Source: a virus. Taken from it: a DNA stretch of 64,000 bases. A program made the translations under genes and the position numbers. Below the pieces are notes generated by a model that was not told the origin of the DNA, did not search any database, and was given only the letters and a program-made list of their open reading frames with translations. How positions within the stretch are numbered: the first letter of the stretch is position 1; every line of letters starts with the position of its first letter. Where the stretch lies: positions 35,207 through 99,206 of IMG/VR virus record IMGVR_UViG_3300017917_001914; one strand, given 5' to 3'. Positions 1,037-61,346 of the stretch are shown piece by piece.

Positions 1037-4000
1037 ATGGCATCAAATCAAAAAGTATTCGTATCTCCTGGAGTATATACTTCTGAAGTTGATTTAAGTT
1101 TCGTAGCACAAAGTGTGGGGGTTACCACATTGGGAATTGTAGGTGAGACCTTAAAAGGTCCAGCTTTCGAACCTATCTTTATACGAAATTTTGATGAATT
1201 CACAAATTTCTTCGGTGGAACTTCTCCAGAAAAATTTATAAATACACAAATTCCAAAGTACGAAGCGGCTTACATTGCCAAATCCTACTTACAACAATCT
1301 AACCAATTATTCGTAACGAGAGTGTTAGGATTATCTGGTTATGATGCAGGCCCATCTTGGTCTATAACAACTAAAGCTAATGTTAACCCAACAACGGTTG
1401 ATTTCTTTTGTGAAAGTGCAACTACAGTTAATTGTGTTAATGAATGTGTTGACTTTAAAACTATAAACTATTCTGTTGATTTCTCGGCATGTACAAATAG
1501 TGTTGATAGTGTAATATTCACAAACACATCTAACTTACCGGCAGAAATATCTACAATTTTATATGAACCTTACGAACAATTTGATGGTTCTACAAGTTCA
1601 TTATATCAAGATATGTCTAAACAAATTTTTGATATTGTTTCAACACCGGCGAAAGAAGATACTTCAATCTATTACTACGGAGCAATACCAACTAGTGTAT
1701 ATTCAGGATTAAGTGAGGTATATACAGGTGAAACTAATGTTTATGAGGTTGATAATGTAAGTGCTAACTTATGTAATTATTCAGCACCTCAAAATGACCC
1801 TTGGTATTATTCATTATTTGATAATGTGGGTAATGCTGTTTATACAGGATATTCGTTTTGGTCAGTTGTAACAGGTTTAACATTAACACCTATTATTACA
1901 ACAACAACATCAACATCAACTACTACTACAACTACAGACCCTTGTACGACAACTACTTCAACCTCAACTACTTCAACAACAACGGCAAAACCGGTTAATT
2001 GTTATACAGGTACATTGATTGGGGTAATTTATGTTTATTCAGGAACTGCATATACTGATTATGATGATTTAGTAATTGCAACACTTCGTTCAAGAGGTTT
2101 ATCAACATATGGTCTTGATGATGGCCCTGTTTATGAAGTACCGGGTGGTGTTGATGGATATGGTAATTTTGATGGTTCAGCGGTTACTTTAGATTGTACA
2201 GGAACATATTCAGGAGTTACTAAGAATCCATTCTCAACTTTTGGAGTTAATATAACAAGTAAAGATGGTGACCAATATTTCTTTGAAACATCATTCTCTA
2301 ATTCTGATTCAAAATACATTAGTAAAGTATTTGGTTCAACTAACTTCTCTAAACCAAGAACTGTAGTTCCATTATTTGTTGAAGAAAGATTCCAAGCTTT
2401 ATTAACAAATGCTTGGAGAATGGGTTATATTAGAGGTTTAAATTGTGAATTAACGGCATTACCTGATGCTAGACAAGCTAAAGACCCTACGTCAATTGCG
2501 TTTTACTTAGAAAAATATCAATCTCCGGTATCTCCATGGGTTGTATCTGAATTAAGAGGTAATAAAGTTTATAACTTATTTAAATTTACTACAATTGCTG
2601 ATGGTGATTCTGCGAATGTTGATATTAAAATATCGTTAGCTAACATGTCATTTAATAATGGTACGTTTGATGTATTAGTAAGAGATTTCTTCGATACTGA
2701 TTCGGCACCTGTTGTTCTTGAAAAATATACTAATTGTAGTATGAACCCTCAAGACAATTCATTTATTGGTAAGAAAATTGGTAGTTTAGATGGAGAATAT
2801 CCATTATTATCAAGTTATATTATGGTTGAAATGAATGAGGATGCACCGATAGACGCACTTCCTTGTGGATTCTTAGGTTATGATTATAGAGAATATGCTG
2901 GTGTAAGACCACCATTCCCATTAATCAAAACTAAATATTACTATCCTGGTGAAGTTGTTTACAACCCACCATTTGGATTAGCATCAGGAGCGGATGACGC
3001 AACAACAAGTGCAGGTGATAATGTAAGAAGAACTTACTTAGGTATTTCAGATACTGAAGGTATAGATGTTGATTTCTTCCAATATAAAGGAACACAACTT
3101 CCATTAGACATTTGTAATGATACAGAAGGATTACCTTGGAACTTTAGAACAAGAGGTTTCCACATGGATAAAAATGCGAGTGGTATTACTATTCCAAATA
3201 TATTTGTAACTAGTGGTACACCGGCATTCTTTGTTGGTGATGCAACATTTACCTCAGACCCTGATAGTGAAGAAAATCCTTACTACAGAATTTTCGCACG
3301 TAAATTTACATTATTAGTTAAAGGTGGTTTTGACGGATGGGATATCTATAGAGAATTTAGAACCAATAAAGATGAGTTTATGTTAGGTAGAAGAGGTTAC
3401 TTGAAAGGTGCTTGTCCTACTATCAAATATCCAACAGCTACAGGTTGGGGAGCATTTAAACAAATCATTGTTGCTGATAATACTCAAGATTACGCTAACA
3501 CAGATTATTACGCATATTTATTAGGTCAACAAACATTTGCAAACCCTGAGGCGGTAAATATTAACGTATTTGTAACACCTGGTATTGATTATGTAAATAA
3601 CTCTAATTTAGTTGAAAATGCAATTGATATGATTGAATATAGTAGAGCGGATTCATTGTACATATGTACTACTCCTGACTACAATATGTATGTTCCATCA
3701 AATAGTAATCAATTAGATTTTATTTACCCTCAAGAGGCTGTAGATAATTTAGCTAATTCAGGTATTGACTCTAACTACACAGCTACTTATTACCCTTGGG
3801 TATTAATGAGAGATACGGTTAATAATACACAAATTTATATACCGGCAACGGCTGAAGTTACAAGAAACTTAGCGTTAACCGACAACATTGCGTTCCCTTG
3901 GTTCGCTGCGGCGGGTTATACAAGAGGTATTGTAAACGCGGTTAAAGCGAGAGTTAAATTGACTCAAGAGAATAGAGATACTCTATATCAAGGTCGTTTA

Positions 4001-25115: not shown

Positions 25116-25123
25116 TTAAAACT

Positions 25124-26992: not shown

Positions 26993-26996
26993 AAAA

Positions 26997-27947: not shown

Positions 27948-27948
27948 T

Positions 27949-30399: not shown

Positions 30400-30447
30400 A
30401 TTTTGGGGGTATTTATAAAAAATAATTACGACACTATATTTATAGAT

Positions 30448-30906: not shown

Positions 30907-30911
30907 AGAAT

Positions 30912-46000: not shown

Positions 46001-46018
46001 GAAATTTTATGTAATTAA
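43001..46018 (+). CDS. Baseplate wedge protein (gp7 / P2 gpI-like domain)
   Basis: IPSQLLKNLSQTLGW...YRNLILNSAYLFKSKGTRKSIETLMALIG, typical of gp7/gpI-like wedge proteins. Confidence 0.75.
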   Translation: MALQKFTCPPQGPSGASSFSDDLVGFQLVTGGGLTQGNFEFATSFNEKTNRTFSTGTFSDPISLEGLGLDSTIQSRTIFENNFKVYPNFDLSQITNFTQYGSLVKRLSTSVETIISKFPAALEATTMGENYVKGETATNITYNEVDNITSFDLDVSRLRNPFAIDFTVNSTRNIQLKEIEVSPLRDMTVEYANYSLYYNGNGYNVTAIIPTTSLTSGTLNISVSGHPFPFQTVTFDDLVIRPNDYEVNRIFNEDLDEVENFLLNRNITPKYTANFNVPREAEDGSYFTSQEFVTFPLNGSWNLDIVTNAFTNYLVQLNDIGASMDEYKTNIIARFLTTGAFQEFDTIGQKMEKVLQIYGRSFDETNKFISALAFMNSVHYNPGDDIPSQLLKNLSQTLGWQTNMSPVSTDDFLSSVFGQRNTDRSQYPGISDATTPDELNYQYYRNLILNSAYLFKSKGTRKSIETLMALIGAPEALIEFNEYIYLADQRINVNQFNTQFAQISGGTYTQELPTLEAGNTYRFRNVEYTGFTTTSVIQDVNITKDEYPMDAFGFPKAPANTEDFFFEKGSGWFEQTPKHRAPEEVSFTNSVFTGANPNYQTVLTPYSYGQEYFDRFRQFPFMNLGYNLTQTIDNNKSWVDTEVGVRSNLDGGYNALYYTTNDALVLNAKNTDLFLNPAQGLSYDVWTMSREYNFPIPNEGLNYVQPTYCDPNPVSNYPMRGGVDWTEINPQPKRKTFFEFAQTFWKNMINVRNRQFSTDGKTMGYPTLQSIYWKYLDAQKLAGVPDGSFNYTNMIEYVDGMGDYWVRLVEQMIPASTIWNTGVKYENSIFHRQKFVWRRQEGCQLIPVPCNPCSMISNIFTYDCYVQSTQCSIYPWQTNPQLQSFSAVLGYLLNNYLTSQGYELNDCLLNTLKSTWYVVLSLDDVEIVQYQFFTGIGYLNTGLSSPTTEQWNEALIPALNGLDLYGFEYILNDTDVVIYSSICSVNDVGINFKLNVGINFEILCN

Positions 46019-48972
46019 TGGCTTGTAGTTTATCTTATATATTAACTAGTTTATCGGGAGATTGTACTAATTCTAATTTAGGAGGATTTAGTATTGATAT
46101 AACAGGAACTGCTCCTGATTATAGTATTCAGTGGGTTAATCCCGCTTTAGGGACTATTGTTTTAGGGGCCGGAGTTACCGGATATACCGCAACTACATTA
46201 TCTGCGGGGACATATTCGTTTAATATTCTTGATTCTTGTTCACCAACAAATACCTCGTTACCGGTAAATATTTATATTTCTAGTGGTACTTGTGCGAGTA
46301 TTACAGGAATTGCAAATACGACGTGTAATGTCGGCAATGGTTCTATAACAGGACAAACATCTAATTTATATGGTATAGGTACGTTTAGTTTATATGAAAC
46401 TACCGAAGGTTTTATTAGTTCAGGGGTATCATTTACTAATACATATTCTTTTACAGATTTATCACCAGGTATTTACTACATTATTGCTGATGATGGTGGT
46501 GGATGTAGTGGACAAAGTGAAACTACAATAATACAACCATCAACTAATATTAATTGGGGTTTTTATACTGTAATGGATTCCGGTTGTGCAAATGTAGATT
46601 CCGGTAAAATATACATAACAGGATTAACAGGGACACCACCATTTACTTATTTATGGTCTAATGGTGAAACAACAGATTTTATTACAGGATTAACCGCTGG
46701 CAGTTATTCGGTACTTGTTACGGATAGTTTGGGATGTACATTATCTAAATCTGCGACAATAACTGAAGTTGACCCATTAGGATTTGGTTCATTTACTGTT
46801 GTCCCACCATCATGTTTTAGTAATAATGGTGAGGTAACCCTTACAATTACAGGTGGTACAGGCCCATATTATTATTCAGCTTCAACTGGGGTGATTAATG
46901 TTTCTTTTAGTTCTTCACAAACATTTTACAATATTGGTGGAGGCCCTTTTTCAGTTCAAGTTACAGACGCTGCTTTATGTAAAATAACACCAACTACTAC
47001 AATAATACCTCCAAATGGTTTTAACATAGTTAGTGTTAATACAACTAATTCAAATTGTGGTGGTAGTGATGGTAAAATAACTATTAATATATCTGACGGT
47101 GCAGTACCATTTACTTACACATTAACTAATTCATTGGGGGATAGTTATGTTCAAACTAATAATTTTAGAAATTGGGTATTTACTAATTTAGAATCGGGAA
47201 CTTATACCCTAACAATTTCTGATAATGGTGGTTGTACTTTTACTAATACATACACTATAAATAATTCGCCTTTATTTGTATTTACGGCTGACACAACCGG
47301 AACAACGTGTAATTTAAACAATGGTTATGTTGAAATAACAGTATCAGGTGGTACTCCACCATATACTTATAATATTGGTAGTGAATCTATTACCACACCA
47401 TTAAGTGCTTATACTTTTGATAATTTATTTTCAGGTGTTTATTCTTTGGAGATAACAGAATCAACCCCAAGGGTGATTTGTAGACAAACATCAAGTTTTA
47501 TTATTGACCCGTCAAATGATGTTGATTTTATGTTATCAGGAACTGATGCCAATAATGGTAATGATGGTACGGTTTCTGCTTATATAACAAACGGGGTGCC
47601 TCCATTTACATTATTATGGAGTGATAACGTAAATGGTCAAACAGGTTATTATTTAAACAATTTAAGTGCTGGAACATATAGTTTACAAGTTACAGATAGT
47701 GATGGGTGTGTTAAAACTAGAGAGGTGACTATAGATGGTTTTGATTCGATATCATCGTATCAAACATTTAATATTTGTGATAGTGAATTTGAAAACATTG
47801 GTGAATTAGTTAAAAAAGGGCCGAAAGAAATGTTAAATGAAGGTTTTTATGATTTAACATCAGAGTTTACTAATTGTATACTTAATCAAGCAATTTTTAA
47901 TATTGTAGTTCAAATTGGAAATGTTACTAATATTTCTCAATTATATATTAGTACGGCTTTAAATGATTACCCAACAGATAATGAATATTTTGATGCTTTA
48001 GTTGCTTTGATTGAAACTTTTGACCAAGTTGCTCAAGTTAATATTGACCCATTAAATAACGGTATTCAAATCATTGCGAAATGTGAAGAACAATATTTGG
48101 TTGCTACCGACGTTAGTGTTAATATGTTTATTGAATATAACATATCGTGTCAATATTGTTCATTACCACCAACAGCGACACCAACCTCGACACCAACAGC
48201 AACACCAACACCGACTTTTGGGCCAACAGCAACTGCTACACCTACACCAACAACTACACCAACAACCACACCAACACCAACAACGACGCCAACTGCAACA
48301 CCAACACCTACTCCAACCCCAACATTACAACAACAATGGTATTTATATAAATCATGTTTATTAGTTAATGAAGAATACCAATATATTTTACAACCTGTTT
48401 TAGCATTAAATAGTTTAATTATTGGTGATGTATTTTTAGATAGTACAGGTGGAAAACCAATTTGTTGGTCATTAGAATCTGTATATAATGGTCAACCTTC
48501 ATTACCATTCTTAAACCCTACAATTTATAACACAAATTATTTTGAAGCGGTTACCAATACAAATTATGGTAGTGTTGATGAAAGAGGTTGTGAATTATGT
48601 GAGATAAGTAAAGATGAGATTGTAGAATCAACAAATAATTTCCTTGTTACTATTATCAAAGAGGAAACGCAAATTTTAGAAATTAATCCACCATTCTATT
48701 CATACAGTAGTAGTTATAGTTTCCCAATAACAGCGTTTGATTCTTTCCAAGGTACTCATGGAGGATTAACTAATCAAATTATTGAAATTACTGTTAGAGC
48801 TTTAGTACCTAATACATCGCAATGTATTTCTTTAATTGTTAATGGTAGTGTATACTTGACACAAACATTACAAGTAACTAATACGGGTCTTTATCTTGTT
48901 CAGTTTTATAATGTAAATGTTTTATCAACCGATACATTACAAATTCAAATATTCCCTGGAGCATGTAATTAA
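46018..48972 (+). CDS. SprB-repeat adhesin-like virion protein with a long Pro-Thr linker
   Basis: Multiple C-x5-G-x-I-x-I-x-GGTPPY-x-Y-x-W...L-x-x-G-x-Y-x-V-x-V-TD-x-x-GC repeats, e.g. GTPPFTYLWSNGETTDFITGLTAGSYSVLVTDSLGC. Confidence 0.85.
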   Translation: MACSLSYILTSLSGDCTNSNLGGFSIDITGTAPDYSIQWVNPALGTIVLGAGVTGYTATTLSAGTYSFNILDSCSPTNTSLPVNIYISSGTCASITGIANTTCNVGNGSITGQTSNLYGIGTFSLYETTEGFISSGVSFTNTYSFTDLSPGIYYIIADDGGGCSGQSETTIIQPSTNINWGFYTVMDSGCANVDSGKIYITGLTGTPPFTYLWSNGETTDFITGLTAGSYSVLVTDSLGCTLSKSATITEVDPLGFGSFTVVPPSCFSNNGEVTLTITGGTGPYYYSASTGVINVSFSSSQTFYNIGGGPFSVQVTDAALCKITPTTTIIPPNGFNIVSVNTTNSNCGGSDGKITINISDGAVPFTYTLTNSLGDSYVQTNNFRNWVFTNLESGTYTLTISDNGGCTFTNTYTINNSPLFVFTADTTGTTCNLNNGYVEITVSGGTPPYTYNIGSESITTPLSAYTFDNLFSGVYSLEITESTPRVICRQTSSFIIDPSNDVDFMLSGTDANNGNDGTVSAYITNGVPPFTLLWSDNVNGQTGYYLNNLSAGTYSLQVTDSDGCVKTREVTIDGFDSISSYQTFNICDSEFENIGELVKKGPKEMLNEGFYDLTSEFTNCILNQAIFNIVVQIGNVTNISQLYISTALNDYPTDNEYFDALVALIETFDQVAQVNIDPLNNGIQIIAKCEEQYLVATDVSVNMFIEYNISCQYCSLPPTATPTSTPTATPTPTFGPTATATPTPTTTPTTTPTPTTTPTATPTPTPTPTLQQQWYLYKSCLLVNEEYQYILQPVLALNSLIIGDVFLDSTGGKPICWSLESVYNGQPSLPFLNPTIYNTNYFEAVTNTNYGSVDERGCELCEISKDEIVESTNNFLVTIIKEETQILEINPPFYSYSSSYSFPITAFDSFQGTHGGLTNQIIEITVRALVPNTSQCISLIVNGSVYLTQTLQVTNTGLYLVQFYNVNVLSTDTLQIQIFPGACN
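48166..48324 (+). repeat. Pro-Thr mucin-like tract (53 aa)
   Basis: [53 protein letters not shown]. Confidence 0.95.
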
Positions 48973-48975
48973 TAT

Positions 48976-49010
48976 AAAAAAACCCCTCCGTTAAGAGGGG
49001 TTATTTTTTT
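48976..49010. terminator. Bidirectional terminator between convergent operons
   Basis: A7-CCCCTC-CGTTAA-GAGGGG-TTA-T7. Confidence 0.85.
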
Positions 49011-49608
49011 ACCATATTTTTTCTTGTTTCATATGACCGATAACACAACAATAAGCGTCTGTTTGGTCAAAGTTTTCTTTTTTTAGGGTATTGTTTCTTG
49101 TATATTGCCAAGTTATTTGAGGTTCTCTTTTGGCGACTAAATCCCATATAATCATTTTCTTATCAACATTTTTATCTAAACCCCCAAATAAAACAAATTT
49201 ACCTTTGTCGTTTGCTTGAACTAATTCCGGGAATGCAAATTTTCTTGAATTGTATGTTGAAATAAATTCAGGTACAACACCTAAAGTATCATATATTTGT
49301 TTTGTGATAAGAGTGTTAAAACGTAACAAAGTTTGAATAGTGTAAACATTATTAGAATTTAATAATGGTTCTTCTATTACTACTTTAGTTATACCTAAAT
49401 CCTTATAATCTAAAAGTTTAGTTTTAAAAATTTCACTTTTAAGTAATAATTCTTTTATCTTATTTTCTTCTTTTGGTTTTGGTACAGGTGATATGTGAGT
49501 TAATTCAAGTAATTCTTGACTTTGTATATCAAATAGTGCCCAACCAATTGTTTTGGTACTAACATCTAATCCCAAAACTTTAGGACTTTCTTTAAGAGTT
49601 TTTTTCAT
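49009..49608 (-). CDS. RuvC-like Holliday junction resolvase
   Basis: VLGLDVSTKTIGWA, VVIEEP and C-terminal FDQTDAY acidic catalytic motifs. Confidence 0.8.
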   Translation of the reverse strand: MKKTLKESPKVLGLDVSTKTIGWALFDIQSQELLELTHISPVPKPKEENKIKELLLKSEIFKTKLLDYKDLGITKVVIEEPLLNSNNVYTIQTLLRFNTLITKQIYDTLGVVPEFISTYNSRKFAFPELVQANDKGKFVLFGGLDKNVDKKMIIWDLVAKREPQITWQYTRNNTLKKENFDQTDAYCCVIGHMKQEKIW

Positions 49609-49614
49609 ATTTTA

Positions 49615-52101
49615 TTAGAAATCAAATTTAACCAAAAACTGTTGAATCCCTTGTCTTAACACAGGAGATTGTAGCTTTGATATAATCATAAGATTCTTAT
49701 CAGAATCGTAAAGACCAATTTCAGTAATATATGAACTTGTTCCTTTAGTCCACGTTGGATTTGAGGTTGATTGAAACTCTGCTTGACCAAGATTTATTTT
49801 ATATTTCATCTCATATATTGTTGCTTCAATATCAGTTTCTAATGAACCATAGAAATAATATTCATCACCAAAATTCAATGAAGGTGTTGTTGTGTTATTT
49901 AAAACTAATGGGATAAAATCATTTAAATTATAATCGTCAGCTGCGGCATAATTCTCTTCAGTGATTGTAAACGTTGTTCCTGTTAAACTATCTACTGTTA
50001 GATAACCATTAATTGTTGTTGCACTTATTTGAGGTGTAAAATCAATGATTTTCCATTCATCTGGGTCAGGTCTACCATTACCAATAACTTTTTGACAAAT
50101 AACTTGGAAAGTATCAGCATAAAACCCTGTTATTAAATCACAAGAAGGACATAGAGTCGTTGTTGTGGTTGTTGTGGTAGTGGTTGTTGGAATTAATGTT
50201 GGTTGATTTAAACATGGGAACTCAGCACCAAATCTAATTGAAACGTTTTGTTCTGTTAAACCTCCACAAGAAATATTTGGCCCTTGAATTTTGGTATAAT
50301 AATTACAATGTAATGAATTTGTGAATATATCACTATTACTAAATCTGTAAGTTACATACATATATTCAGTATCCGCAGTTAAAATACCATTAACTGTTGG
50401 TTGATTATTTTCTATAACACAAGTGTTTGGTGTTGTTAATCCGATTTTAGGTGCAGGTAATGTCCAATTACGATTTGATTTATAAGACATTGCAGCAATG
50501 ATTTCTTCATCATCAATTATAATGATTTGTGAATCAGGGAATACTTTACCAATTCTATTTGGATATCCATTATCATTTGGGTTATTATCCCAAAGTTGGT
50601 AATATCTAATACCCGGAGTATTCATATCCGGATTTTTAGTTGATTCTATATAGTATTCTCTGAATATTAAACTTTGTCCGTCATTTGATACTAAATCTTC
50701 AAATCCTGGTGGGTCAACCCAAAAAGTTTGACCTTTACAACACTCAGGGTTTTTATGCCACATAAGCCATGGTAAATGTAATTTGAAGTTACGAGCTTCA
50801 CCTGTTGTATCTGTAGGATTATTAGGGTCATAAGGTTCAAAGGCAAATTTCTCACCATAGAAGAAATCAATTGATTGGTTAGTATAGTGAATAATAGCAA
50901 TAGCTTTTTGTTCACTAGGTTGAACAACTACAGTTTCATCAAATGAATTGTAATAGTAAACAATACCCGTATCTGTTTGTCCACTATCAGACATATATCC
51001 GAAATATTCTTTACTACCTAAATAAGATGCTGAACCAAAATATTGATAACCTTTATAAGTAGATTCATATAATCCTGCAGGATTTTCCGACCAAGGAATA
51101 TTCATATTCCAAATTTTAACATCAGATTCGTCCGTACTACATAATGACTCAAAATTAATAACATTTTGATTCCAATGAGAACTTGGTGTAACACTATCGT
51201 ATATTGTTGTCATATTTGGTGGGTATACTAATACTCTAGCATAACATCCACTTGAAAAGTTTGAAAAATCAGGTGTAGGTCTATCTAACGTATAATTACC
51301 GTTACAAATATCTATAATTTTATATGTTAATATTGAATAACAACTACTCATAGACATCTCACAATTAGGAGGTGTTGGAGTTGGTAAAGGGGTTGATGAA
51401 CAAGTTATTGTTGGAGTTGGGGTTGGAGTAGGTGTTTGACATATAGTTGATGTATGTGTTGGTGTAGGTGTTGACATAGGTGTTGATGTAGATGTCAACC
51501 CTGGCGTTGATGTAGGTGTTGGTGTTGGGCCTGGTTCACAATAACAATTGTTTTTACCTTGTCCGTCATAATATATTGTTACAAAATCACCTATAGATGG
51601 TAATCTTACAATATTTGAATTACATCCTGAATATATTAATTGAATAACACTACCACCTGTCAATGTAGACATATCTACAAGGTAGTTAGAATTTATAGTG
51701 TATTGGCTATTAGTTAACGCACTCCAAGTTATAGTTGTTGCAGTTGTATCACCGGTGAAAAATCCTCTCATTGCTGCTCTATTATAAACTGCTTGAGGAA
51801 CTGATGCCATATATGGAATTCCATAAGTATTACCGGTTATTCCATCAACATAGTATGGGTATTTAACATTTTGTTTATTAGATTCAGGAGCTCCTGTTGA
51901 ATTTTGAGCGTTAAACGCTGGTTCAAGAATGTTTGTTGAGGTTTGATTATAAGGTGTCCCGGTTAATGTGTTATAAGACACTTCACTATCACCTACTTGA
52001 AAATAAGAAATGTTAAAACTACCTTGTGATAGTTTTTGTCTTGCGGTATCGGTTAATCTTGTGCTAAGTAAACCTTGTGTATTTTTTAATATGTATCCCA
52101 T
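49615..52101 (-). CDS. Tail fibre attachment / baseplate-associated protein with PT and poly-T tracts
   Basis: N-terminal TRLTDTARQKLSQGSFNISYFQVGDSEVSY and C-terminal YITEIGLYDSDKNLMIISKLQSP resemble a split tail-fibre N-terminal (P2 gpH-type) fold. PT tract at 51367-51535, T-run at 50155-50190. Confidence 0.7.
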   Translation of the reverse strand: MGYILKNTQGLLSTRLTDTARQKLSQGSFNISYFQVGDSEVSYNTLTGTPYNQTSTNILEPAFNAQNSTGAPESNKQNVKYPYYVDGITGNTYGIPYMASVPQAVYNRAAMRGFFTGDTTATTITWSALTNSQYTINSNYLVDMSTLTGGSVIQLIYSGCNSNIVRLPSIGDFVTIYYDGQGKNNCYCEPGPTPTPTSTPGLTSTSTPMSTPTPTHTSTICQTPTPTPTPTITCSSTPLPTPTPPNCEMSMSSCYSILTYKIIDICNGNYTLDRPTPDFSNFSSGCYARVLVYPPNMTTIYDSVTPSSHWNQNVINFESLCSTDESDVKIWNMNIPWSENPAGLYESTYKGYQYFGSASYLGSKEYFGYMSDSGQTDTGIVYYYNSFDETVVVQPSEQKAIAIIHYTNQSIDFFYGEKFAFEPYDPNNPTDTTGEARNFKLHLPWLMWHKNPECCKGQTFWVDPPGFEDLVSNDGQSLIFREYYIESTKNPDMNTPGIRYYQLWDNNPNDNGYPNRIGKVFPDSQIIIIDDEEIIAAMSYKSNRNWTLPAPKIGLTTPNTCVIENNQPTVNGILTADTEYMYVTYRFSNSDIFTNSLHCNYYTKIQGPNISCGGLTEQNVSIRFGAEFPCLNQPTLIPTTTTTTTTTTTLCPSCDLITGFYADTFQVICQKVIGNGRPDPDEWKIIDFTPQISATTINGYLTVDSLTGTTFTITEENYAAADDYNLNDFIPLVLNNTTTPSLNFGDEYYFYGSLETDIEATIYEMKYKINLGQAEFQSTSNPTWTKGTSSYITEIGLYDSDKNLMIISKLQSPVLRQGIQQFLVKFDF

Positions 52102-52131
52102 GTGATATAAATATTCTTATTTTTTTTATTT

Positions 52132-53151
52132 TTAACTAACACTTATTATTTCTACACGACAACACCCACAACCGGATATCGTTGCATTACCAATACTAAA
52201 TGAATCTTGACTTGATGTATAAGTACAAGGTGTTAATGGTTCGTTTTGTGTAATTGTTGTTGTTGTGTTTAGTACTATTGAATCTGAATTTGAAAATGTT
52301 AATGTCTCCCAACTTTCAGTATAAAAATCAATATAATTTGTTAAATTTTGACACCCTTGAATTGGGTTATAATTTGTGTTTGATGTTGTAGACCCTGTAG
52401 TTGTAACAGTTATTGGTGTATTATTTTTAGTTAATATTGTATTAGTAGTCAAAGTGGCTGTTGAGGCACTTGGTGAATAATTAAATTGATTATTATGATA
52501 AATATTAAAACTAATAGTTGTTCCACTTGGTAATTCAGGTGTAACACTAACGGTTGTTGTATATTGATTAGTTAATGTCGTATTATTATTTACCGGATTT
52601 GTTGATGTTGTAATTAATTTTACACTATATAATGTTGGTGGTGCCGGTTCATTTAATGTTACATTATTACTATTGGTATTACCACTTAAATCAATTACTT
52701 TAATACTATATATACCCGAACATAAATTATTAAAAATTGGTGAATTAGAATAAGTTACACCATTATCTATTGAGTATTGGTACGGAGGGTAACCACCTGA
52801 AGCTGTAATCATCAAATTACCATCACACGTACATATTGGTTGATTAACACTATAAGTTAACGAGTTAACACCTAATGGATTACAAACACCTTCATTTGCT
52901 ACTACAGTTCCGTTAGCTCCTAATATGTACCAAGAGTTAAGAGGAGGATAAGATGCTGATGAATAAACTGAATAAGATAAATTACCTCCATTCAATTTCC
53001 ATCTACTTAATGAAATGTCCCAATTAATTGAATAGGCATAATCATCGGAAATCCATTGATTATATCCATTACCATCTAACCCATTTGGATTAAAATGAAT
53101 TTGTAAGTTATTAATACTAATATTTAAACAAAAATTATATTCAATTTCCAT
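52132..53151 (-). CDS. SprB-repeat-containing, Thr/Asn-rich structural protein
   Basis: ASGGYPPYQYSIDNG...FNNLCSGIYSIKVID. Likely start is ATG 53151 (MEIEYNFC), or it is the 3' half of a split gene. Confidence 0.65.
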   Translation of the reverse strand: MEIEYNFCLNISINNLQIHFNPNGLDGNGYNQWISDDYAYSINWDISLSRWKLNGGNLSYSVYSSASYPPLNSWYILGANGTVVANEGVCNPLGVNSLTYSVNQPICTCDGNLMITASGGYPPYQYSIDNGVTYSNSPIFNNLCSGIYSIKVIDLSGNTNSNNVTLNEPAPPTLYSVKLITTSTNPVNNNTTLTNQYTTTVSVTPELPSGTTISFNIYHNNQFNYSPSASTATLTTNTILTKNNTPITVTTTGSTTSNTNYNPIQGCQNLTNYIDFYTESWETLTFSNSDSIVLNTTTTITQNEPLTPCTYTSSQDSFSIGNATISGCGCCRVEIISVS

Positions 53152-53153
53152 AG

Positions 53154-53714
53154 TTAAGTTGTTGAGGTTAATTGACATGTTGTTGTAGCGGTAAAATCTC
53201 CCCAATAATCTACAATAGTTACAGGATAAGACCCAACAGATAAATTCATAACCGCAGGGCTAATATTTCCTGAAATACTACCACCCCAAATATATTTGTA
53301 TGGTGGAGTACCACCGGTTATTGAAACCGAAACTCTCCCATCATTTGATGTTGAACTTGAAGGATTAATAGAATCACATTCAATGGTCATTGGAAATATT
53401 GTAATTACATCACATTCATTTGATTGAAGATAAGTAATTGCTGGTTGTGGTGGTGGAGGTGGAAAACAACTATAAGCATTTTCTAAACAATCTTGACAAT
53501 CAGGATGTAACGTTACAGTACCATTTGTTCCGTTATATATTAACGAACCTGATGGTATTGGCCCTTCAATTAAAGTTGCACACCCACTGAATGAAGGAAC
53601 TTCAATTGAGTAAACATTACCATATATGGGTAAAGTTAGTAAAAGGTCATTTACTCCGAAATAATTATCGGATTCATTTAATTTGACGCAACATGTTTGA
53701 AAATAATATATCAT
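53154..53714 (-). CDS. Cys-rich SprB-repeat-containing protein
   Basis: ITGGTPPYKYIWGG...NLSVGSYPVTIVDYWGD; DCQDC and PPPPPQP. TATTTAT on - at 53737-53743. Confidence 0.7.
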   Translation of the reverse strand: MIYYFQTCCVKLNESDNYFGVNDLLLTLPIYGNVYSIEVPSFSGCATLIEGPIPSGSLIYNGTNGTVTLHPDCQDCLENAYSCFPPPPPQPAITYLQSNECDVITIFPMTIECDSINPSSSTSNDGRVSVSITGGTPPYKYIWGGSISGNISPAVMNLSVGSYPVTIVDYWGDFTATTTCQLTSTT

Positions 53715-53734
53715 TATAATGTTTTTCTGTTATA

Positions 53735-54715
53735 CTATAAATAATCCTTTATTTGTTTTTTAACCAAAGATTTCATAACTTCTACATATTTTTTTGTAGA
53801 ACTTTGAGAACTAACATAATCAAAAAAGTTAATATCCTCTTTTAGTTTATCTAATGGATTAATATTAATAAAATCTCCTTTATAAAATTTATCTTGTTTT
53901 TGGTTACCGGTAACTCCTGCCATATGAAGAATTGGTTTATCTTCATATATTTGTATTGAATCTGTTGCCCATGAAAAATCTAATTCAGGTGTTATTCGAG
54001 TTTCAATTCCATGTAACCATAAGTTCCATAATAATGACCACATTTCTGCAGTCCAAAATTGAATTTCACCGGGACTAATTGGGAATCTTTTTTGATAATC
54101 TAACATTTGGTCATATAATGGAACACAATCTGCATAAATTTTTTCCCATAATAACCAATCAGTATTTTTGATTATATATTGTCCACCACCTGAATTCTCT
54201 TGATTACATTCGATACATTCAACAGAAACACCTATAACGTCTGCCATTTCTTGAATTAATTGACCTTTACCGGAAGTTGGGTGTGCATTCTCATAACGTT
54301 CACAACAATCCATAATATATCTGTAACCAATATAACCTATTGTATCAGATAGATATGTTATATCGTCATTAATTAAACTATCAAAATTTGGTAATTTTCT
54401 GAAGATAATATCAGAGTCGTGTAAGAAGAAACATTTACCATATTCAGGAAAATCTTTTAACCATTTTGAAATTAAAAAAGGCTTTACTGTTGGTATATAA
54501 TGTTTTTGAGGTCTGTCGTCAATATAATGATGAACATTAACACCTAAATCTTTAATTTTTAAAGATTCTTCAGTTGGTTTACCATCCTCACTTATAATTC
54601 CAAGTAATATGTGTATTTGATTGGGGGAGATTCCATGTTCAATAAAGTTATGTATATACACCATTATTTGCCAATGGAAATATGGTACATCAGGTTGTGC
54701 TGTAACAAAAATCAT
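53735..54715 (-). CDS. GT-A glycosyltransferase resembling peptidyl-Ser O-galactosyltransferase / Hyp O-arabinosyltransferase (GT96/GT95-like)
   Basis: Ordered motifs PYFHWQ, Y-x-P-x-x-KP-x4-WL, FFLHDSDIIF (DxD), GGG, WTAEMWS and terminal ILH match, from memory, SGT1/HPAT motifs YFDWQ, YPAINKP-x4-WL, ILDAD, VGG, WISEMY and IH. Confidence 0.75.
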   Translation of the reverse strand: MIFVTAQPDVPYFHWQIMVYIHNFIEHGISPNQIHILLGIISEDGKPTEESLKIKDLGVNVHHYIDDRPQKHYIPTVKPFLISKWLKDFPEYGKCFFLHDSDIIFRKLPNFDSLINDDITYLSDTIGYIGYRYIMDCCERYENAHPTSGKGQLIQEMADVIGVSVECIECNQENSGGGQYIIKNTDWLLWEKIYADCVPLYDQMLDYQKRFPISPGEIQFWTAEMWSLLWNLWLHGIETRITPELDFSWATDSIQIYEDKPILHMAGVTGNQKQDKFYKGDFININPLDKLKEDINFFDYVSSQSSTKKYVEVMKSLVKKQIKDYL

Positions 54716-54793
54716 AATAATTAAAACGTTTTTAATTAAATATAAATGACAATCAAATGTAATAAATGGTAAAGATGATGATATTTATATAAT

Positions 54794-54964
54794 ATGAAAC
54801 TGATTAGAACAATATCAAATTTGGTTACAGAATCTAAAAGAATTTACGAAGAGGCCTGTGAAAAAGGTGTCAACGAAAAAGAATTAGATAGATTAGAAAA
54901 AAACTACAATGAATCTTTAAAACTTTTAAAGTTGTATGAAGGTTTAGGTAAAAAAACAGAATAG
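54794..54964 (+). CDS. Small hypothetical protein (56 aa), not in the ORF track
   Basis: MKLIRTISNLVTESKRIYEEACEKGVNEKELDRLEKNYNESLKLLKLYEGLGKKTE*, with TATTTAT at 54782-54788 just upstream. Confidence 0.7.
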   Translation: MKLIRTISNLVTESKRIYEEACEKGVNEKELDRLEKNYNESLKLLKLYEGLGKKTE

Positions 54965-54966
54965 TT

Positions 54967-57870
54967 TTACGTTCCGTAAGCTATTTCAACACCCTCAATA
55001 TGTATCGTCCATCTTAATGTTTCACCAACCGCACCTGTTACTTGTACTTGTAAAGCATCGTTAGTATTGTCTGCGGTAATTGTAACATCATAAGACGCGT
55101 TATCTTCCATATCAGTACCAATAGTTGATACTGTACCAATTAAAGATGTTGTCCCACCTACATTCTTAATAGCCACTTTTCTGATGTAATGAGCCCCTGC
55201 AGAACCATCAGATTTAATACCACCAATATTAACAGTCACAAACATTGCTGTTCCATTAATAACACTTATAAGTTCACTTGTTCCATTTAAGAATATATTA
55301 ACTGGTGTGGCATTTGTTGTTTTATTTCTACCAACTAAATCGATTTGTTGTGAGGCGGCCGGAGCTGTTGTTCCACTCCAAACACCTGTTGCAAATGACC
55401 TTTGACCAAAACGAGGTGCACATGCGAAACTTCCTCCCATGATTGCAGAATATCGACCCGATGTTTCGTTTCCTGCCCCACCACCTATAAAAGTTGAAGT
55501 TTCATTTGATATGTTACAATTTCCTCCAGCAATAACTGATGAACTGGCATATAGTGTCATAGTATTACAAAGACCACCACCAATAAATGAAAGAGTTCCT
55601 CGAGTATAGTTGCAAAAACCACCCGCAATTGTTGCTTGTGACCGATTTATTATATTTCCTTGTCCACCACCGATTGTTCCGTAAGGTTCACAAACACAAT
55701 TACATCTACCTCCACCGATTGTTGCGTAGGCACCATATGTTGATGCTAGATTTAATCTACCACCACCAATAAATGCAAAACATTCTGAAACGGTATTACC
55801 TGAACCACCACCTATTGTTGATAATAAACCTTGTGTATTGTTTTGAAAACCACCACCTATTGTTGATAATTTACCTGCATTGTTTTTTGTTGGTGACACA
55901 TTAAATATTCCCGTAGAACCAAAAGTTCCTCCAGAAGTATTATTTCCAGCACCACCACCAATAGTTGCGCCTAATGAACAACTTTCATTTGTTGGGGATT
56001 GTATTATATTACATCTACCACCACCAATTGTTGAATTGCTTGCATTAGTGCAGTTAGTTGAACCACCACCAATCGTTGAATGACTTCCACATGATATATT
56101 AGATTCACCACCACCAATTTTTGACCATGAAGAAAACACGCAATTGCTTCTACCACCATTAATAACTGAATAAGTACCTCCTGAAATTGTGTTACATTGA
56201 CCACCACCTATAACATTTTTTTGATTAGTAATTGTATTATTAAAACCACCACCAATTACAGACAAACAACTTGCGTAATTTGGAATAATACTATTTCTTA
56301 AACCACCACCAATAAATGATAAATCACTTGTAATTATATTAGCAGTTCCCCCAACAATAGATGATGTACGACCTGATACGGTATTCCCTAAACCACCACC
56401 AATAAATCCTTGGTAACACCCACTTGAGCTTGTTGTAAAATTTCTTAAAAATGGTACAGATAAAGAGAATGGATTTACTGCCGCAGTTGCACCACTAACA
56501 TATAAGTTAGTATATGGTGCGGAATATGTTTGTCCCGTAACAACTACGTTTCGACTACATCCAAGATTATCGTATGTTAATAAAAGGTCATTTACACTAA
56601 ACGATGATGATTGATTCCCGTACAATTGTATTGTACAATTATTCGCGGAATATGATTGTATTACTTGAGAATTACCTATAAAGTTTAATGCTCCACCACC
56701 AATTATAGAATGTGCCCCACGACTTACGTTAACACTTCCTCCTCCAATAACCCCAAATGGTTCGACCACTCTATTATTATTACCACTAACAATACCACCA
56801 CCATAAGAATTTGAACCTAAACAGTTCCCACACCCACCTAATATTGCTGCTCTAACCCCATATGTTTTATTTTTAAAACCACCAACAATAATACCATCTT
56901 CACCAACACCTGTTGTTCCAGATATTTGATTACATCTACCACCACCAATAAATCCGTATGATTGACAAATTGTATTATTACCACCACCGGCGATTACTGA
57001 CCTTATTGGATTTAATGTATTACTGTTAATACAGTTAAAAACACCACCACCTATTGAAGAATCTGTTCCACAAATAAAATTAAATCTACCTCCCGCAATT
57101 GTTGTATAATTACAACATATTGTATGACTACGACCACCACCGATAAATGAATCAATTCCTGATGAAGTGTTATATCTACCACCACCAATTGTTGAATAAT
57201 TACCTAAAGAACAGTTACATCTACCACCACCAACAAATGATTGAAAACACGCTGTATTATTTCTACCACCGACTATTGTTGCGTAAGTACTTAATGCAGA
57301 ATTACCACAACCTCCGGCAATTGTTGTTGAAATTCCTGAAGTTTGGTTAGACCTACCACCACCAACAAATGAACATCCACACAACGCGGTATTTAAACGA
57401 CCACCGGCAATTGTTGAGGACGTACCTGATATGCTATTACCACAACCACCACCAACAGTTGAACCAAAACATCCTGATATATTACAACGACCACCACCTA
57501 TTGTTGAATAACAACCTGCATTATTATTACCATAACCACCTCCAATGAATGAATGTGTTCCACCACTAACTATGTTTTTTCTACCACCAACAACCATTGA
57601 ATTATTTGTTGTTGCTGAGTTTGAATACCCTCCTAAAGCTCCGGAATTATTACCTGATGCAAGATTATTAACATCTCTTCTTATAGAAGAATTAACACCT
57701 GTCCCACTAACAATAACAACAAATGGTGAGCCACTAATTGCTTCGTCAATGGTTGATTTATAAGATGAACCTGCCGGGTTTTGAGTCGGGTTATTAGTAT
57801 CAACAATATGTATTAATGTTTGACTAGTTGTAAAACCTGATGGTGAATATGTTCTTTGAGTTAATATCAT
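54967..57870 (-). CDS. Gly-rich repeat tail fibre / adhesin (beta-roll or beta-helix-like)
   Basis: Dozens of about 15-aa repeats S(T/F/V)I(G/A)GG-x-x-N-x6 in two blocks separated by a non-repetitive domain. Confidence 0.75.
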   Translation of the reverse strand: MILTQRTYSPSGFTTSQTLIHIVDTNNPTQNPAGSSYKSTIDEAISGSPFVVIVSGTGVNSSIRRDVNNLASGNNSGALGGYSNSATTNNSMVVGGRKNIVSGGTHSFIGGGYGNNNAGCYSTIGGGRCNISGCFGSTVGGGCGNSISGTSSTIAGGRLNTALCGCSFVGGGRSNQTSGISTTIAGGCGNSALSTYATIVGGRNNTACFQSFVGGGRCNCSLGNYSTIGGGRYNTSSGIDSFIGGGRSHTICCNYTTIAGGRFNFICGTDSSIGGGVFNCINSNTLNPIRSVIAGGGNNTICQSYGFIGGGRCNQISGTTGVGEDGIIVGGFKNKTYGVRAAILGGCGNCLGSNSYGGGIVSGNNNRVVEPFGVIGGGSVNVSRGAHSIIGGGALNFIGNSQVIQSYSANNCTIQLYGNQSSSFSVNDLLLTYDNLGCSRNVVVTGQTYSAPYTNLYVSGATAAVNPFSLSVPFLRNFTTSSSGCYQGFIGGGLGNTVSGRTSSIVGGTANIITSDLSFIGGGLRNSIIPNYASCLSVIGGGFNNTITNQKNVIGGGQCNTISGGTYSVINGGRSNCVFSSWSKIGGGESNISCGSHSTIGGGSTNCTNASNSTIGGGRCNIIQSPTNESCSLGATIGGGAGNNTSGGTFGSTGIFNVSPTKNNAGKLSTIGGGFQNNTQGLLSTIGGGSGNTVSECFAFIGGGRLNLASTYGAYATIGGGRCNCVCEPYGTIGGGQGNIINRSQATIAGGFCNYTRGTLSFIGGGLCNTMTLYASSSVIAGGNCNISNETSTFIGGGAGNETSGRYSAIMGGSFACAPRFGQRSFATGVWSGTTAPAASQQIDLVGRNKTTNATPVNIFLNGTSELISVINGTAMFVTVNIGGIKSDGSAGAHYIRKVAIKNVGGTTSLIGTVSTIGTDMEDNASYDVTITADNTNDALQVQVTGAVGETLRWTIHIEGVEIAYGT

Positions 57871-57901
57871 TGGTTTTTTGTTTTATATTATAAATAGTTC
57901 A

Positions 57902-58207
57902 TTATTGGAAATCGAATATCTCAAAATCCATAAATTCAAAATATTCATAATCTTGAAATTGTTTTGGAACTGGTGGTAATAAATTACAATATACTACTTC
58001 AAATCTTTCACAACCATCACCATAAATAACTTTAATACCTACTGCCGCCACATTATTAAATTGTGGTGGTAATACTATAACATTGTCAGGTGGTACTGAT
58101 GTTGTAATTGTTGCAATTAAAATACATTGGTTACCATAGACATCACACGCATAAATTATATACGGAAAGTTTGAACCTGTGATTGATTGTATGTTAATTG
58201 CTGTCAT
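57902..58207 (-). CDS. Small putative structural protein, paralog-like to 61348..61563
   Basis: I-x-I-x-x-ITG-x-x-P-x-x-IY-x-CD...PP...KVI...CE shared with 61348..61563. Confidence 0.6.
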   Translation of the reverse strand: MTAINIQSITGSNFPYIIYACDVYGNQCILIATITTSVPPDNVIVLPPQFNNVAAVGIKVIYGDGCERFEVVYCNLLPPVPKQFQDYEYFEFMDFEIFDFQ

Positions 58208-58210
58208 ATC

Positions 58211-60430
58211 TTAAAAAGTATATAATGGGTTTGGTATTCCGACTATTGAACCATTGACAACTGTTACGACAGTATCAGGATAATTTGTTGCGGTTCTAAC
58301 ACCATTAACAATTGGGTTTGCTTTAATTGTGTATGATGTTAAATTAGGTGGTGATGTTAATCGTAGGTCATAATCATAAACATATACTTGTTGTAACTGA
58401 TATCGTTGGTTACCTGGATTTAAAGTCACCCCTTTAGTACTAAAATCACAGGTTTGTGCTGATAATGATGTTATTGGTGTGTATGGTGACGAGTTACCTG
58501 AAAAAGGTATTGTTAAATTATATGAATTATAAAACTGATATACTCCTTGTATTGTAGCGCCTGTCGCGGGGTTATTCACATTAAAAGTTAGTTTTCTATC
58601 TTGATAAAATGGAGATACATATCTTTGACCTCTATTAGTGGTTCTAATCATGTTATTTGTAGTTCCGGTTGACGAACTATTAATAGTATTCACTAAACTA
58701 TTTAATGTAGATTCACAAAATTGTTCACAAGTTGTATAATTAATTTGTTTTGTTATTGTAGGCATATCCATAGTTAATGTATAACTATTAGATGTACTTC
58801 CAGTTGTTATCACACTTGAATAATGTATGTCAAAATATGTTGGAGTTGTATTATCGCCACATTCTTGAAGACCGGTACTATTTTGTATTGCTAACGTAAT
58901 GTATTGATAATAATTAATGTTAGTTGGGTTTGAGTTATATCCGGAGGTTGCTTTTCTACTTTCATATGAATTTTTATAAACGATTAAATCATTTAAATCA
59001 CTAAAAATCATATTAATTTTACCAATTCCTGATACAATTGTCTTTTCAAATGTTATTGTGTTATTATTTGGTGGTTCAGCACACACTAAAGTTGTGCTGA
59101 AGTTAGAACCAAAACTACATGTGGTAGTACCTGTCGTAACATTTATTTGTCTTTGTAATAAGTTTGTTAAATTACTTGTATTCACATTAGCGAATTGATT
59201 CACCGCGTCACTTGTTGCACCCATGGAATATTTCCAAAGGTCTGATGAATTTATTTGACTAGTAGAACAACCTGATAATTCTAACGGTATTGTACTTTGA
59301 CCACAACTTCCCGGAATAATATTGGTTATCGAGCTCGTTTTAATTTTATAAGGTGTGTTTAAATAACTATCTAAACATAATGAACAATCAAAAGAATCTA
59401 AACAAGTGAAATAAAAATCCCAATTTGTTTGTGTATTTAATTGATTTGGAATTACTTCTAAAATTAAATAATCACCTGAATTTATTGTTAATGAAGTTAA
59501 TGAAGTTACTTTAAAAAAATAACTTGGGTCAGGAGTTACGTAATTAGCGGTTCTACCTGATTTTGGTAAAGTTAATAATGATATGTCTGAAATTAAATTT
59601 GACCCAGTACCGATAGTCCAATATTCTAAAATAAGTGGTTCATCGTAAGAAGAACCTGAAAAAGTTATTTTAAGCGAATCTGATACAGCAAAACCGTTAA
59701 ATTTCCACGCAAAATAATCAGTTGTTGGGTCTAAATCAAAGGTTGTTTGTAATGATTCGGGTGTCACACCAATACCCGCACCGGTAAAATTAACTCTATG
59801 TGTGTAATCATTATTAATTAAGTTACCATTATCACAATTGTAAGATGTGATTGTTATTGGAGACAAACAATTCATTTCGGCTTGGACAACACCATTATCT
59901 CCTGTTTGAGAAAAATTAAGTCCGTTTAAGTTAACTTGATTTATTATCGGAGTGTAAACTCCTGATGGTTGTATTACAGCATTTGTACCTGTTAACGGGT
60001 GAGTGTATTGGTAAGTTAAGTTATTACCAAACCCTGATGTAAAGGCTAATGTTGTTGTACTATTTGGGCCATACCAATATATCTGATAATCACTAATTTG
60101 ATTATCACAATTACCTGTTAAATTCCCCACAACAATTTGACCAATACTGGTTGATTCATATGTATCAAAATTTAAATCACATGTGATACATAAATCATTT
60201 GATTGTAGGTCAATAGTTGCGCAACATTTATTTCCTGTGTCAATAATTTTTATAGACGTAGTATTATCTGGAACATTACCCATAATATATGGACAAGTTG
60301 TTAATGTTAATAATGGTATACTTACTTGAAATGGTGTTGTATAGTTATCAACATTTGAATAAATGTTAAATGCTCCAGTTGATACAAAACCTTGAGGGTA
60401 AGTTAAACAAGTTGACGCTGAAAATGGCAT
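58211..60430 (-). CDS. Thr/Asn/Cys-rich putative structural (fibre/decoration) protein
   Basis: 739 aa, beta-rich composition, in the minus-strand late operon. Confidence 0.55.
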   Translation of the reverse strand: MPFSASTCLTYPQGFVSTGAFNIYSNVDNYTTPFQVSIPLLTLTTCPYIMGNVPDNTTSIKIIDTGNKCCATIDLQSNDLCITCDLNFDTYESTSIGQIVVGNLTGNCDNQISDYQIYWYGPNSTTTLAFTSGFGNNLTYQYTHPLTGTNAVIQPSGVYTPIINQVNLNGLNFSQTGDNGVVQAEMNCLSPITITSYNCDNGNLINNDYTHRVNFTGAGIGVTPESLQTTFDLDPTTDYFAWKFNGFAVSDSLKITFSGSSYDEPLILEYWTIGTGSNLISDISLLTLPKSGRTANYVTPDPSYFFKVTSLTSLTINSGDYLILEVIPNQLNTQTNWDFYFTCLDSFDCSLCLDSYLNTPYKIKTSSITNIIPGSCGQSTIPLELSGCSTSQINSSDLWKYSMGATSDAVNQFANVNTSNLTNLLQRQINVTTGTTTCSFGSNFSTTLVCAEPPNNNTITFEKTIVSGIGKINMIFSDLNDLIVYKNSYESRKATSGYNSNPTNINYYQYITLAIQNSTGLQECGDNTTPTYFDIHYSSVITTGSTSNSYTLTMDMPTITKQINYTTCEQFCESTLNSLVNTINSSSTGTTNNMIRTTNRGQRYVSPFYQDRKLTFNVNNPATGATIQGVYQFYNSYNLTIPFSGNSSPYTPITSLSAQTCDFSTKGVTLNPGNQRYQLQQVYVYDYDLRLTSPPNLTSYTIKANPIVNGVRTATNYPDTVVTVVNGSIVGIPNPLYTF

Positions 60431-60440
60431 ATTTTAATTT

Positions 60441-61346
60441 TTAAGTTTTATTATACATATATCCACCTAAACCACAATCAATACATTCTGAAGGAACAGG
60501 TATTGGTGTAGGTGTTGGTGTAGGTGTTGGTGTTGGAACAATAGATTCTGAACATAATATACAATCCCCTTGGTCTAAAAATCCATACGGGCCTTCTAAA
60601 AGTGTTATATTATCAATACCTATAGTATTATTATTAACTCCTATGTAAGAGATACAAATAACTTCACCATTAACATTTGCTTTATAAACTTCAAATTTAG
60701 TTATAGTATTACCGTTAGGTGTTATGATTTGGTTTGTTGTAAACAACATCTTACCTGTGCCGTAACACTCTTGGAATTGATAACTATATGGACAAACTAT
60801 ACTATCATCTATTGTATTAAAAGTCACTCCTGCCTCAAAAGTACAATCACGAGAGATTGTTGGAGACGGAGTTGGTGTTGGGCTGGACGTAGGAGTTGGT
60901 GTAGGTGTTACACTTTGAATACTTGCACTTATAACAACATTACACGGATTAGTTGGTGTAGGTGTTGGTGTAGGTGTTGGTGTGGATGTAGGTGTGGCGG
61001 TTGGTGTAGGTGTTGGAACGTCACAATCAAAAATTGCTGAAAAATCTAAACTAGAACAATTTGCGGTTGGACTTGGTGTTGGTGTTGGACACACTCCACT
61101 AAAAAAATAAACACTATCTAAATCCGGACATGGATTAAAACAAGGAGATTGACCTGATAATAAACAAGTTCCATCTAAAACTGTTGATAAACACCATTGA
61201 GTTGAACCTGTATTATAGTAGATGAATAAGTTATTTGTTTGACCAGTCCAATATAGTTCAGAGTTATGTGTTCCGGCGCTAAAATAAACATCGTCAAAGG
61301 TTGGATAACCTGTATTAGATAAGCAATATGTTGAACTACAAGGCAT
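60441..61346 (-). CDS. Mucin-like protein: Cys-rich modules separated by four Pro-Thr tracts
   Basis: CPTPTPSPT; [22 protein letters not shown]; [17 protein letters not shown]; [16 protein letters not shown]. Confidence 0.8.

Follow-up and report, generated by a model that had tools for sequence, protein, structure and literature searches.

Glycosylation of virions by phage-encoded enzymes is best known from mycobacteriophages (Che8, Corndog, and Myrna; Freeman et al. 2023), in which phage glycosyltransferases are thought to decorate the C termini of the capsid and tail-tube proteins, as outlined in PMC12619734. The same source describes freshwater jumbo phages of Flavobacteriia ("moraphages") that have four core glycosyltransferase groups, and there virion glycosylation is mentioned as a possibility only. 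Here, we analyzed a 64,000-nucleotide stretch of DNA from a large, uncultured aquatic phage (positions 35,207 to 99,206 of IMG/VR record IMGVR_UViG_3300017917_001914; hereafter, the window) that carries a gene for a putative glycosyltransferase, P0001, along with genes for particle proteins containing runs of threonine (Thr). Comparisons with related phages suggested that P0001 would transfer sugar onto Thr hydroxyls within the unstructured poly-Thr runs carried by particle proteins of the same phage, and we put the probability of this reading at roughly 0.68. To our knowledge, mycobacteriophages are the only phages for which glycosylation of virions by phage-encoded enzymes has been shown, and in them it alters immune recognition. 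Our literature search returned no description of the P0001 family or of poly-Thr tags.

By analogy, the mycobacteriophage system is the closest known one. Siphophage members of the P0001 family resemble it in combining a phage-encoded glycosyltransferase with Thr-rich C-terminal tags on the capsid and tail-tube subunits, which is the mycobacteriophage-type arrangement. The two systems differ in several respects. The P0001 family consists of apparently distinct, unannotated enzymes that use pure poly-Thr as their apparent code, its hosts belong to Bacillota and Bacteroidota instead of Actinobacteria, and its virion glycosylation is a prediction. Moreover, the runs in the window are mostly internal linkers of the sheath and of fiber-like proteins, unlike the C-terminal sites in mycobacteriophages.

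The enzyme, its fold, and its family

The gene in question is an uninterrupted open reading frame (ORF) in the second half of the window:

53735..54715, minus strand: putative glycosyltransferase P0001 (326 amino acids [aa], soluble, GT-A fold, phrog_4417, DSD at aa 100 to 102)

An earlier note on this DNA, made from the letters alone, had described a 326-aa ORF with a DxD motif and a series of ordered motifs, and we found all of them: YFHWQ (aa 12 to 16), KPFLISKWL (aa 78 to 86), DSD (aa 100 to 102), GGG (aa 176 to 178), and WTAEMW (aa 221 to 226). The second motif had been written as KP-x4-WL; it is present, but its spacing is KP-x5-WL. Sequence analysis detected no membrane segment in P0001.

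The profile of phrog_4417, a phage protein family with no annotated function, matched P0001 with an E value of 2.6e-69 (residues 1 to 317 on profile positions 1 to 291 of 293). Clustering of the family at 50% identity gave 823 clusters, and at 90% identity there were more than 2,000; the source names shown for its clusters were all "hypothetical protein," and its base rate was 77 in 50,697 phage records. Sequence searches of Pfam, NCBIfam, and PDB sequences yielded nothing useful for P0001; specifically, the Pfam GT8 model (PF01501) did not match, and Pfam at E ≤ 10 gave a single, unrelated weak match. Residues D100, D102, and H264 were invariant in 55 relatives, and D100 and D102 were nearly invariant in 150. 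At least 12 of the 78 long relatives were fusions with other glycosyltransferase domains (GT7C, 6; PF11397, 3; GT2, 2; GT6, 1; GT25, 1; and O-FucT, 1), as would be expected of enzymes that build a glycan stepwise, and single long relatives had a methyltransferase or radical-SAM domain as the fusion partner.

An AlphaFold model of P0001, built with 55 relatives in the alignment, had a predicted local distance difference test (pLDDT) score of 97.5. The model is a GT-A glycosyltransferase with a single Rossmann-like alpha/beta/alpha domain that matched known GT-A enzymes over most of the chain. The DSD motif (D100-S-D102) follows the strand at residues 95 to 98 and corresponds to the DxD metal/nucleotide-sugar motif. 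The nearest solved folds were retaining GT8/GT24-type enzymes, which covered the whole chain (fold-match scores: glycogenin, 15.1; Skp1 Gat1, 14.7; LgtC, 14.2; UGGT, 14.1; WbbM, 14.1; and GlyE, 13.2), and Foldseek gave concordant results. P0001 was similar in fold to glycogenin, Gat1, LgtC, UGGT, and GlyE of the serine-rich-repeat adhesin pathway, but its identity to GT8/GT24 enzymes was just 7 to 13%. These solved neighbors use both protein and lipopolysaccharide (LPS) acceptors. When a viral structure library was searched, uncharacterized phage proteins ranked first and viral GT8 enzymes came next. Judging from the model, the fold leans to the retaining GT8-like type.

The earlier note had assigned P0001 to GT95/GT96 and expected these families at the top of a structural search. 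This assignment was not confirmed, and the solved-structure matches were instead led by glycogenin, Gat1, LgtC, and UGGT, with no GT95 or GT96 entry among the matches listed. The Pfam HPAT model (PF23452) did not match P0001 at E ≤ 10; it reached E 0.09 at best in 2 of 55 relatives, and none of the 78 long relatives matched at 1e-3. Searches for HPAT in the phage record (no match) and in five cultured-phage records (0 of 5 at E ≤ 1) were weak ones, since the control genomes were equally silent. The sole support for GT95 was a weak lead, namely that HPAT was carried by a minority of members in 19 of the 30 nearest named Atlas clusters. The plant and algal enzymes HPAT (GT95) and SGT1 (GT96) are alike in concept in that they place sugars onto hydroxyls of repetitive Ser/Pro/Hyp-rich peptides; however, the plant enzymes are Golgi membrane proteins and P0001 is soluble. 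We regard them as a functional analogy, and kinship to P0001 is unproven. Chlorovirus PBCV-1 A64R and the enzymes of giant-virus capsid glycosylation were a weaker match to P0001 than were the GT8-like enzymes. PBCV-1 glycans are N-linked at atypical sites, and Thr-run tags are not known to be involved.

One family member, in Enterococcus phage 9183 (L312:10001-10870), has a GenBank note of homology to a PqqD peptide-modification chaperone, which conflicts with the GT-A fold.

Co-occurrence of the gene with poly-Thr runs in other phages

A check proposed with the original idea was whether the gene and the PT or poly-T tracts occur together across related phages. Coupling was seen in two sets of loci from prophage lineages (phiFL1 and PLE3), in six further cultured lineages, and in the enzyme's own clade. 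For the phiFL1 set, viral contigs were fetched by homology to the body of the phiFL1A capsid protein, with the tag excluded from the query. The gene was present in 12 of the 30 resulting loci, and all 12 had poly-Thr C-terminal tags on the capsid protein and the tail-tube protein alike; the remaining 18 lacked the gene and had no Thr run of any kind. The capsid bodies were 80 to 89% identical on both sides of this divide, and they ended in the same residues in both groups. The PLE3 set was assembled with the PLE3 capsid body by the same design. Here, the capsid tag tracked the gene with zero exceptions among capsids that were 94 to 99% identical. In the 51 PLE3-set loci in which both proteins could be scored, the tail-tube tag, which lies 2.3 kb away, agreed with the gene's presence in 31 of the 34 loci that carry the gene and with its absence in 15 of the 17 that lack it.

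The cultured lineages carried Thr runs on different proteins beside the gene. In phiCTP1, the runs were on the portal, a head protein, and the tail tube. The protease or scaffold and the tail tube carried them in Staphylococcus phage RQ1 and Arcanobacterium phage TPWB06, and in Enterococcus phage 9183, a weak run was on the tail tube. In the case of Lactobacillus phage Iacchus, two small proteins encoded just upstream of the gene had Thr runs, in a region whose other annotated genes are for replication. Chryseobacterium phage MA9V-3 likewise had runs on two proteins encoded upstream of the gene, where the annotation is hypothetical only. As a background, Thr runs were found in 5 of 52 siphophage loci without the gene (5 of 1,742 ORFs). 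We also ran the test in reverse by picking viral contigs solely on the basis of the DNA pattern (ACN)8. The gene was on 5 of 36 contigs in which the pattern encoded T8 in frame versus 0 of 29 in which it lay in another frame, and in 3 of the 5 gene-bearing contigs the Thr run sat in the adjacent gene.

Within P0001's own clade (enzyme identity, 58 to 95%), Thr runs occurred within 10 kb in 72 of 80 loci, and the gene that starts right after the enzyme's stop codon carried a Thr/Ser run in many of the 80. The family's gene was located inside morphogenesis operons (flanked by tail-tube and chaperone genes or by capsid and adaptor genes), not at moron sites. The arrangement is not peculiar to a T4-like myophage; many siphophages of Bacillota have the family as well, and in them it is paired with tags on the capsid and tail tube.

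In RQ1 (L310:9620-9928) and TPWB06 (L311:9672-9923), a short ORF full of T7 to T9 runs lies in a different frame and overlaps the major tail protein gene at its 3' end. Through frameshifting, this ORF may add a long tail rich in Thr to some of the tail-tube subunits.

Thr runs in the window and in a syntenic relative

The Thr and Pro-Thr (PT) tracts in the window were as follows:

1898..1984, plus strand: two 13-residue Thr/Ser runs (aa 308 to 336) in the N-terminal extra region of the sheath protein 977-4390
11980..11997, plus strand: T6 run (aa 1027 to 1032) in the 1667-aa protein 8902-13905
38120..38134, plus strand: TTTTT tag at the extreme C terminus of the 1771-aa protein 32822-38137
48178..48324, plus strand: PT/T-rich linker (aa 721 to 769) in the SprB-repeat protein 46018-48972
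50155..50190, minus strand: P-T11 run (aa 638 to 649), the second linker of the 828-aa protein 49615-52101, read from the sequence
51409..51528, minus strand: (PT)n first linker (aa 192 to 231) of the same 828-aa protein, read from the sequence
52132..53714, minus strand: two Thr/Ser-rich proteins (186 aa and 357 aa) encoded directly downstream of the P0001 gene
60504..61088, minus strand: several (PT)n tracts (aa 87 to 163 and 271 to 281) in the 301-aa protein 60441-61346

The PT or poly-T tracts that the earlier note had listed in these proteins, including the sheath and the 8902-13905 protein, are real, but the 60441-61346 protein holds PT runs alone and no pure poly-T. The TTTTT tag of the 1771-aa protein was missing from that list. 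The Thr runs are encoded by a mixture of ACA, ACC, ACT, and ACG codons and thus are not a simple DNA repeat, and the length of the T11 run is far beyond chance given a Thr content of about 8 to 13%. In an alignment of the 828-aa protein (27 rows, i.e., the window protein and 26 homologues), 26 of the 27 sequences kept Thr runs at the second linker, with variation in number, length, and spacing; at the first linker, some homologues had T7 to T9 in place of PT. The P-T11 run is the strongest candidate acceptor near the P0001 gene. Of 79 sheath relatives, 58 had runs at the position of the window's sheath Thr/Ser runs, and homologues of the 186-aa and 357-aa proteins often had Thr runs. The ORFs 52132-53205 (TTG start) and 53154-53714 share 52 bases (53154-53205), which suggests that the true start of the 52132-53205 gene is probably later.

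One contig, G071 (69 kb, 21% complete), was collinear with about 54 kb of the window, and the proteins were 34 to 93% identical. A search for the P0001 family in the 69 kb of G071 found no match even at an E value of 10. The gene block that holds P0001 was absent, such that the five genes at 53735-61346, including those for the 54967-57870 and 60441-61346 proteins, had no counterpart in the 69 kb. G071 also had no poly-Thr run at the homologous sites of the sheath and the 1667-aa, 1771-aa, and 828-aa proteins. Specifically, a non-Thr segment stood in its sheath at the place of the window's Thr/Ser runs, and in the 828-aa homologue the second (T11) linker was deleted and the first linker was a shorter P-rich/PT sequence. 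The G071 region that aligned to the 46018-48972 linker had no PT run, and some (PT)n linkers were kept elsewhere.

A four-gene block downstream of the P0001 gene (49009-53714) is convergent to the preceding genes in the window and collinear with them in G071 (L396:5208-10905). Together with the five genes that lack a counterpart, this suggests an inversion along with an insertion or deletion between the two sequences. The closest cultured relative of the sheath was only 30% identical and supplied no gene-lacking isolate as a control. The other sheath-bearing contigs were mostly 9 to 33% fragments that ended short of the enzyme position, where a missing gene is uninformative.

The proposed acceptor, its alternatives, and the surrounding genes

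The comparisons described above supported the poly-Thr part of the original proposal, which was that P0001 O-glycosylates the Thr tracts of virion proteins. The part of the proposal that concerned PT tracts fared less well. The coupling was with runs of Thr alone. Some (PT)n linkers remain in G071 although no gene was detected there, and such linkers, which may be modified as well, are thus unproven as substrates. In the mechanism that we propose, P0001 would be a soluble, metal-dependent, cytoplasmic enzyme that is made with the late proteins and uses a cytoplasmic nucleotide-sugar and a DxD-bound metal. Thr residues in disordered runs would be glycosylated before or during particle assembly, and the candidate acceptors here would lie in the sheath (its insertion), the 828-aa fiber-like protein (T11 linker), the 1667-aa protein (T6 run), and the 1771-aa protein (C-terminal T5). 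The retaining-type fold of the model leans to an alpha linkage. The glycan might shield or stiffen the particle or promote adhesion, and it may be extended or modified by the other glycosyltransferases, sulfotransferase, methyltransferase, DUF3431, and HtrL/YibB proteins encoded on the record.

We judge it somewhat better than an even bet that this generalizes, i.e., that a Thr run is a portable, encoded glycosylation tag which, together with one small soluble enzyme, forms a module that has spread across unrelated tailed phages infecting Bacillota and Bacteroidota and decorates any particle protein that gains the tag (capsid, portal, tail tube, sheath, or fibers).

Several findings weigh against glycosylation of poly-Thr by P0001 and its family. 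The gene changed state only 3 times in the gene tree of the PLE3 set and 2 times in that of the phiFL1 set; thus, the perfect tables rest on few events, and an independent-pairs sign test on the gene trees was not significant, with too few pairs. About 100 to 550 bp separate the capsid tag from the gene in the PLE3 set, such that one recombination could move both. The exceptions in this set were three gene-bearing loci with an untagged tail tube and two proviruses (L278 and L281; 100% and 96% complete) with a tagged tail tube and no gene anywhere on the record. There were also near-complete phages with poly-Thr runs that lacked the P0001 family; one of these has a GT2 gene, and two others had no match to GT2, GT8, or PF11397 either. 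The rule therefore runs from enzyme to tag and not from tag to enzyme. In addition, G071 is only a partial genome and the gene could lie elsewhere in it, the LPS enzymes LgtC and WbbM are among the nearest folds and the acceptor is not fixed by the fold, and the case for poly-Thr glycosylation by the family is a comparative one.

Two side observations concern these exceptions. The T7 tag on the tail tube of L278 and L281 is identical to the PLE3 type and their capsids are untagged, and these proviruses are probably recombinants with an orphan tag. A 74%-complete phage without the P0001 family (L091:4643-8486) encodes three proteins that end in T5 to T13 and has a GT2 gene elsewhere on the contig; another enzyme family may serve the Thr tags in this phage.

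Among the alternatives to Thr transfer by P0001 itself, the one that survived best, although we consider it unlikely, is that P0001 is an elongating transferase and that the Thr residues are primed by a PF11397 protein, a GT60-like polypeptide GlcNAc-transferase encoded upstream on the record. GT60 enzymes add GlcNAc to Thr or Hyp residues of polypeptides. The PF11397 gene (E 2.8e-71; G000 20416-21663) adjoins a gene for a PT-rich protein (358 aa, 24% Thr, many PT runs), and the three PF11397 fusions noted above join this domain to the P0001 family. However, phiFL1A has the tags and a P0001 family member and no other annotated glycosyltransferase, which means that the family member there would have to act on the peptide itself and that the family can apparently act alone. 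Moreover, the coupling with poly-Thr tracks the P0001 family, not PF11397.

It is also quite improbable that P0001 modifies a nonprotein target (host envelope polysaccharide, teichoic acid, LPS, or phage DNA) and that the link to Thr reflects cassettes co-moved by recombination. Phage glycosyltransferases commonly act on DNA or host surface glycans according to PMC12619734, and both the LgtC and WbbM folds and the adjacency of tag and gene in the PLE3 set fit such a target. Opposed to this are the position of the gene inside morphogenesis operons, the tags 2 to 3 kb away that change along with the gene, and the recurrence of the pairing in unrelated lineages with different tagged proteins. In the case of DNA, phiFL1A has no annotated base-hypermodification genes. 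DNA glycosylation and lysogenic conversion were both ranked low on the basis of operon position, covarying distant tags, and the phiFL1A gene content.

Least probable of all, in our estimation, is that the Thr and PT tracts are mere flexible or extended spacers and that the enzyme acts at other protein sites or co-occurs with the runs as a lineage habit: the runs do lie at hypervariable linkers between conserved, Cys-flanked domains, linker 1 of the 828-aa protein can hold either (PT)n or poly-T, and poly-Thr is found in phages without the enzyme, but the C-terminal capsid and tail-tube tags join nothing, among relatives that are 80 to 99% identical they disappear precisely where the gene is missing, and G071 lacks all of the poly-Thr runs yet keeps some PT linkers.

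If Thr transfer by the P0001 family is correct, glycosylated particles would be common in phages of Enterococcus, Staphylococcus, Lactobacillus, Lactococcus, and Clostridium and in abundant freshwater jumbo phages, and, should the portable-tag reading hold, many therapeutic and dairy phages would be glycoproteins. Glycosylated particles would matter for phage therapy (recognition by antibodies and clearance), particle stability, adsorption, and the interpretation of cryo-electron microscopy and proteomics data. An unannotated family of more than 2,000 sequence clusters would gain a name, and under the portable-tag reading the enzyme plus a Thr tag could be a simple tool for glycosylation of cytoplasmic proteins. 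A direct test of the idea is feasible, since there are cultured members that have the gene and others that lack it, with capsids 80 to 99% identical.

The source record is 99 kb long and represents an estimated 34% of a genome; no capsid gene was identified on it. The window has a G+C content of 31% and contains T4-like sheath, tube, and baseplate genes along with Bacteroidota-type SprB repeats. The C-terminal domain of the sheath protein 977-4390 matched phrog_23 (E 2.2e-56), baseplate wedge genes are located at 30403-32750, and the SprB repeats in 46018-48972 had an E value of 3.7e-26. Just upstream of the P0001 gene is another large gene:

54967..57870, minus strand: 967-aa fiber/adhesin-like protein with no Thr run and with UspA1 head domain-like repeats (E 2.4e-12)

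The label of a fiber/adhesin cluster, which the earlier note had given to the surroundings of the enzyme gene, was partly backed by the SprB and UspA1 head-like matches in 46018-48972 and 54967-57870, but the other neighbors of the P0001 gene matched no annotated family. When PDB sequences were searched with the large neighbors, the matches were mostly via PT linkers, and the 967-aa protein alone gave a real match. The AlphaFold2 model of the 828-aa protein, based on the 27-row alignment, was poor (pLDDT, 44).

Other glycan-related genes lie upstream of the window on the same record (L004:9793-14827 and L005:274-6465). They encode GT25, a GT9-like protein, a sulfotransferase, a methyltransferase, PF11397, DUF3431, and HtrL/YibB. 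This upstream part also encodes a 281-aa protein with three T6 runs and contains a 2673-aa ORF (L004:659-8680) with 19% threonine and no long Thr or PT run. Inside the window, genes for SSB, a UvsX-like recombinase, an exonuclease, a DnaB-like helicase, and both ribonucleotide reductase subunits (21369-30363) separate the tail-tube/hub genes from the baseplate wedge genes.

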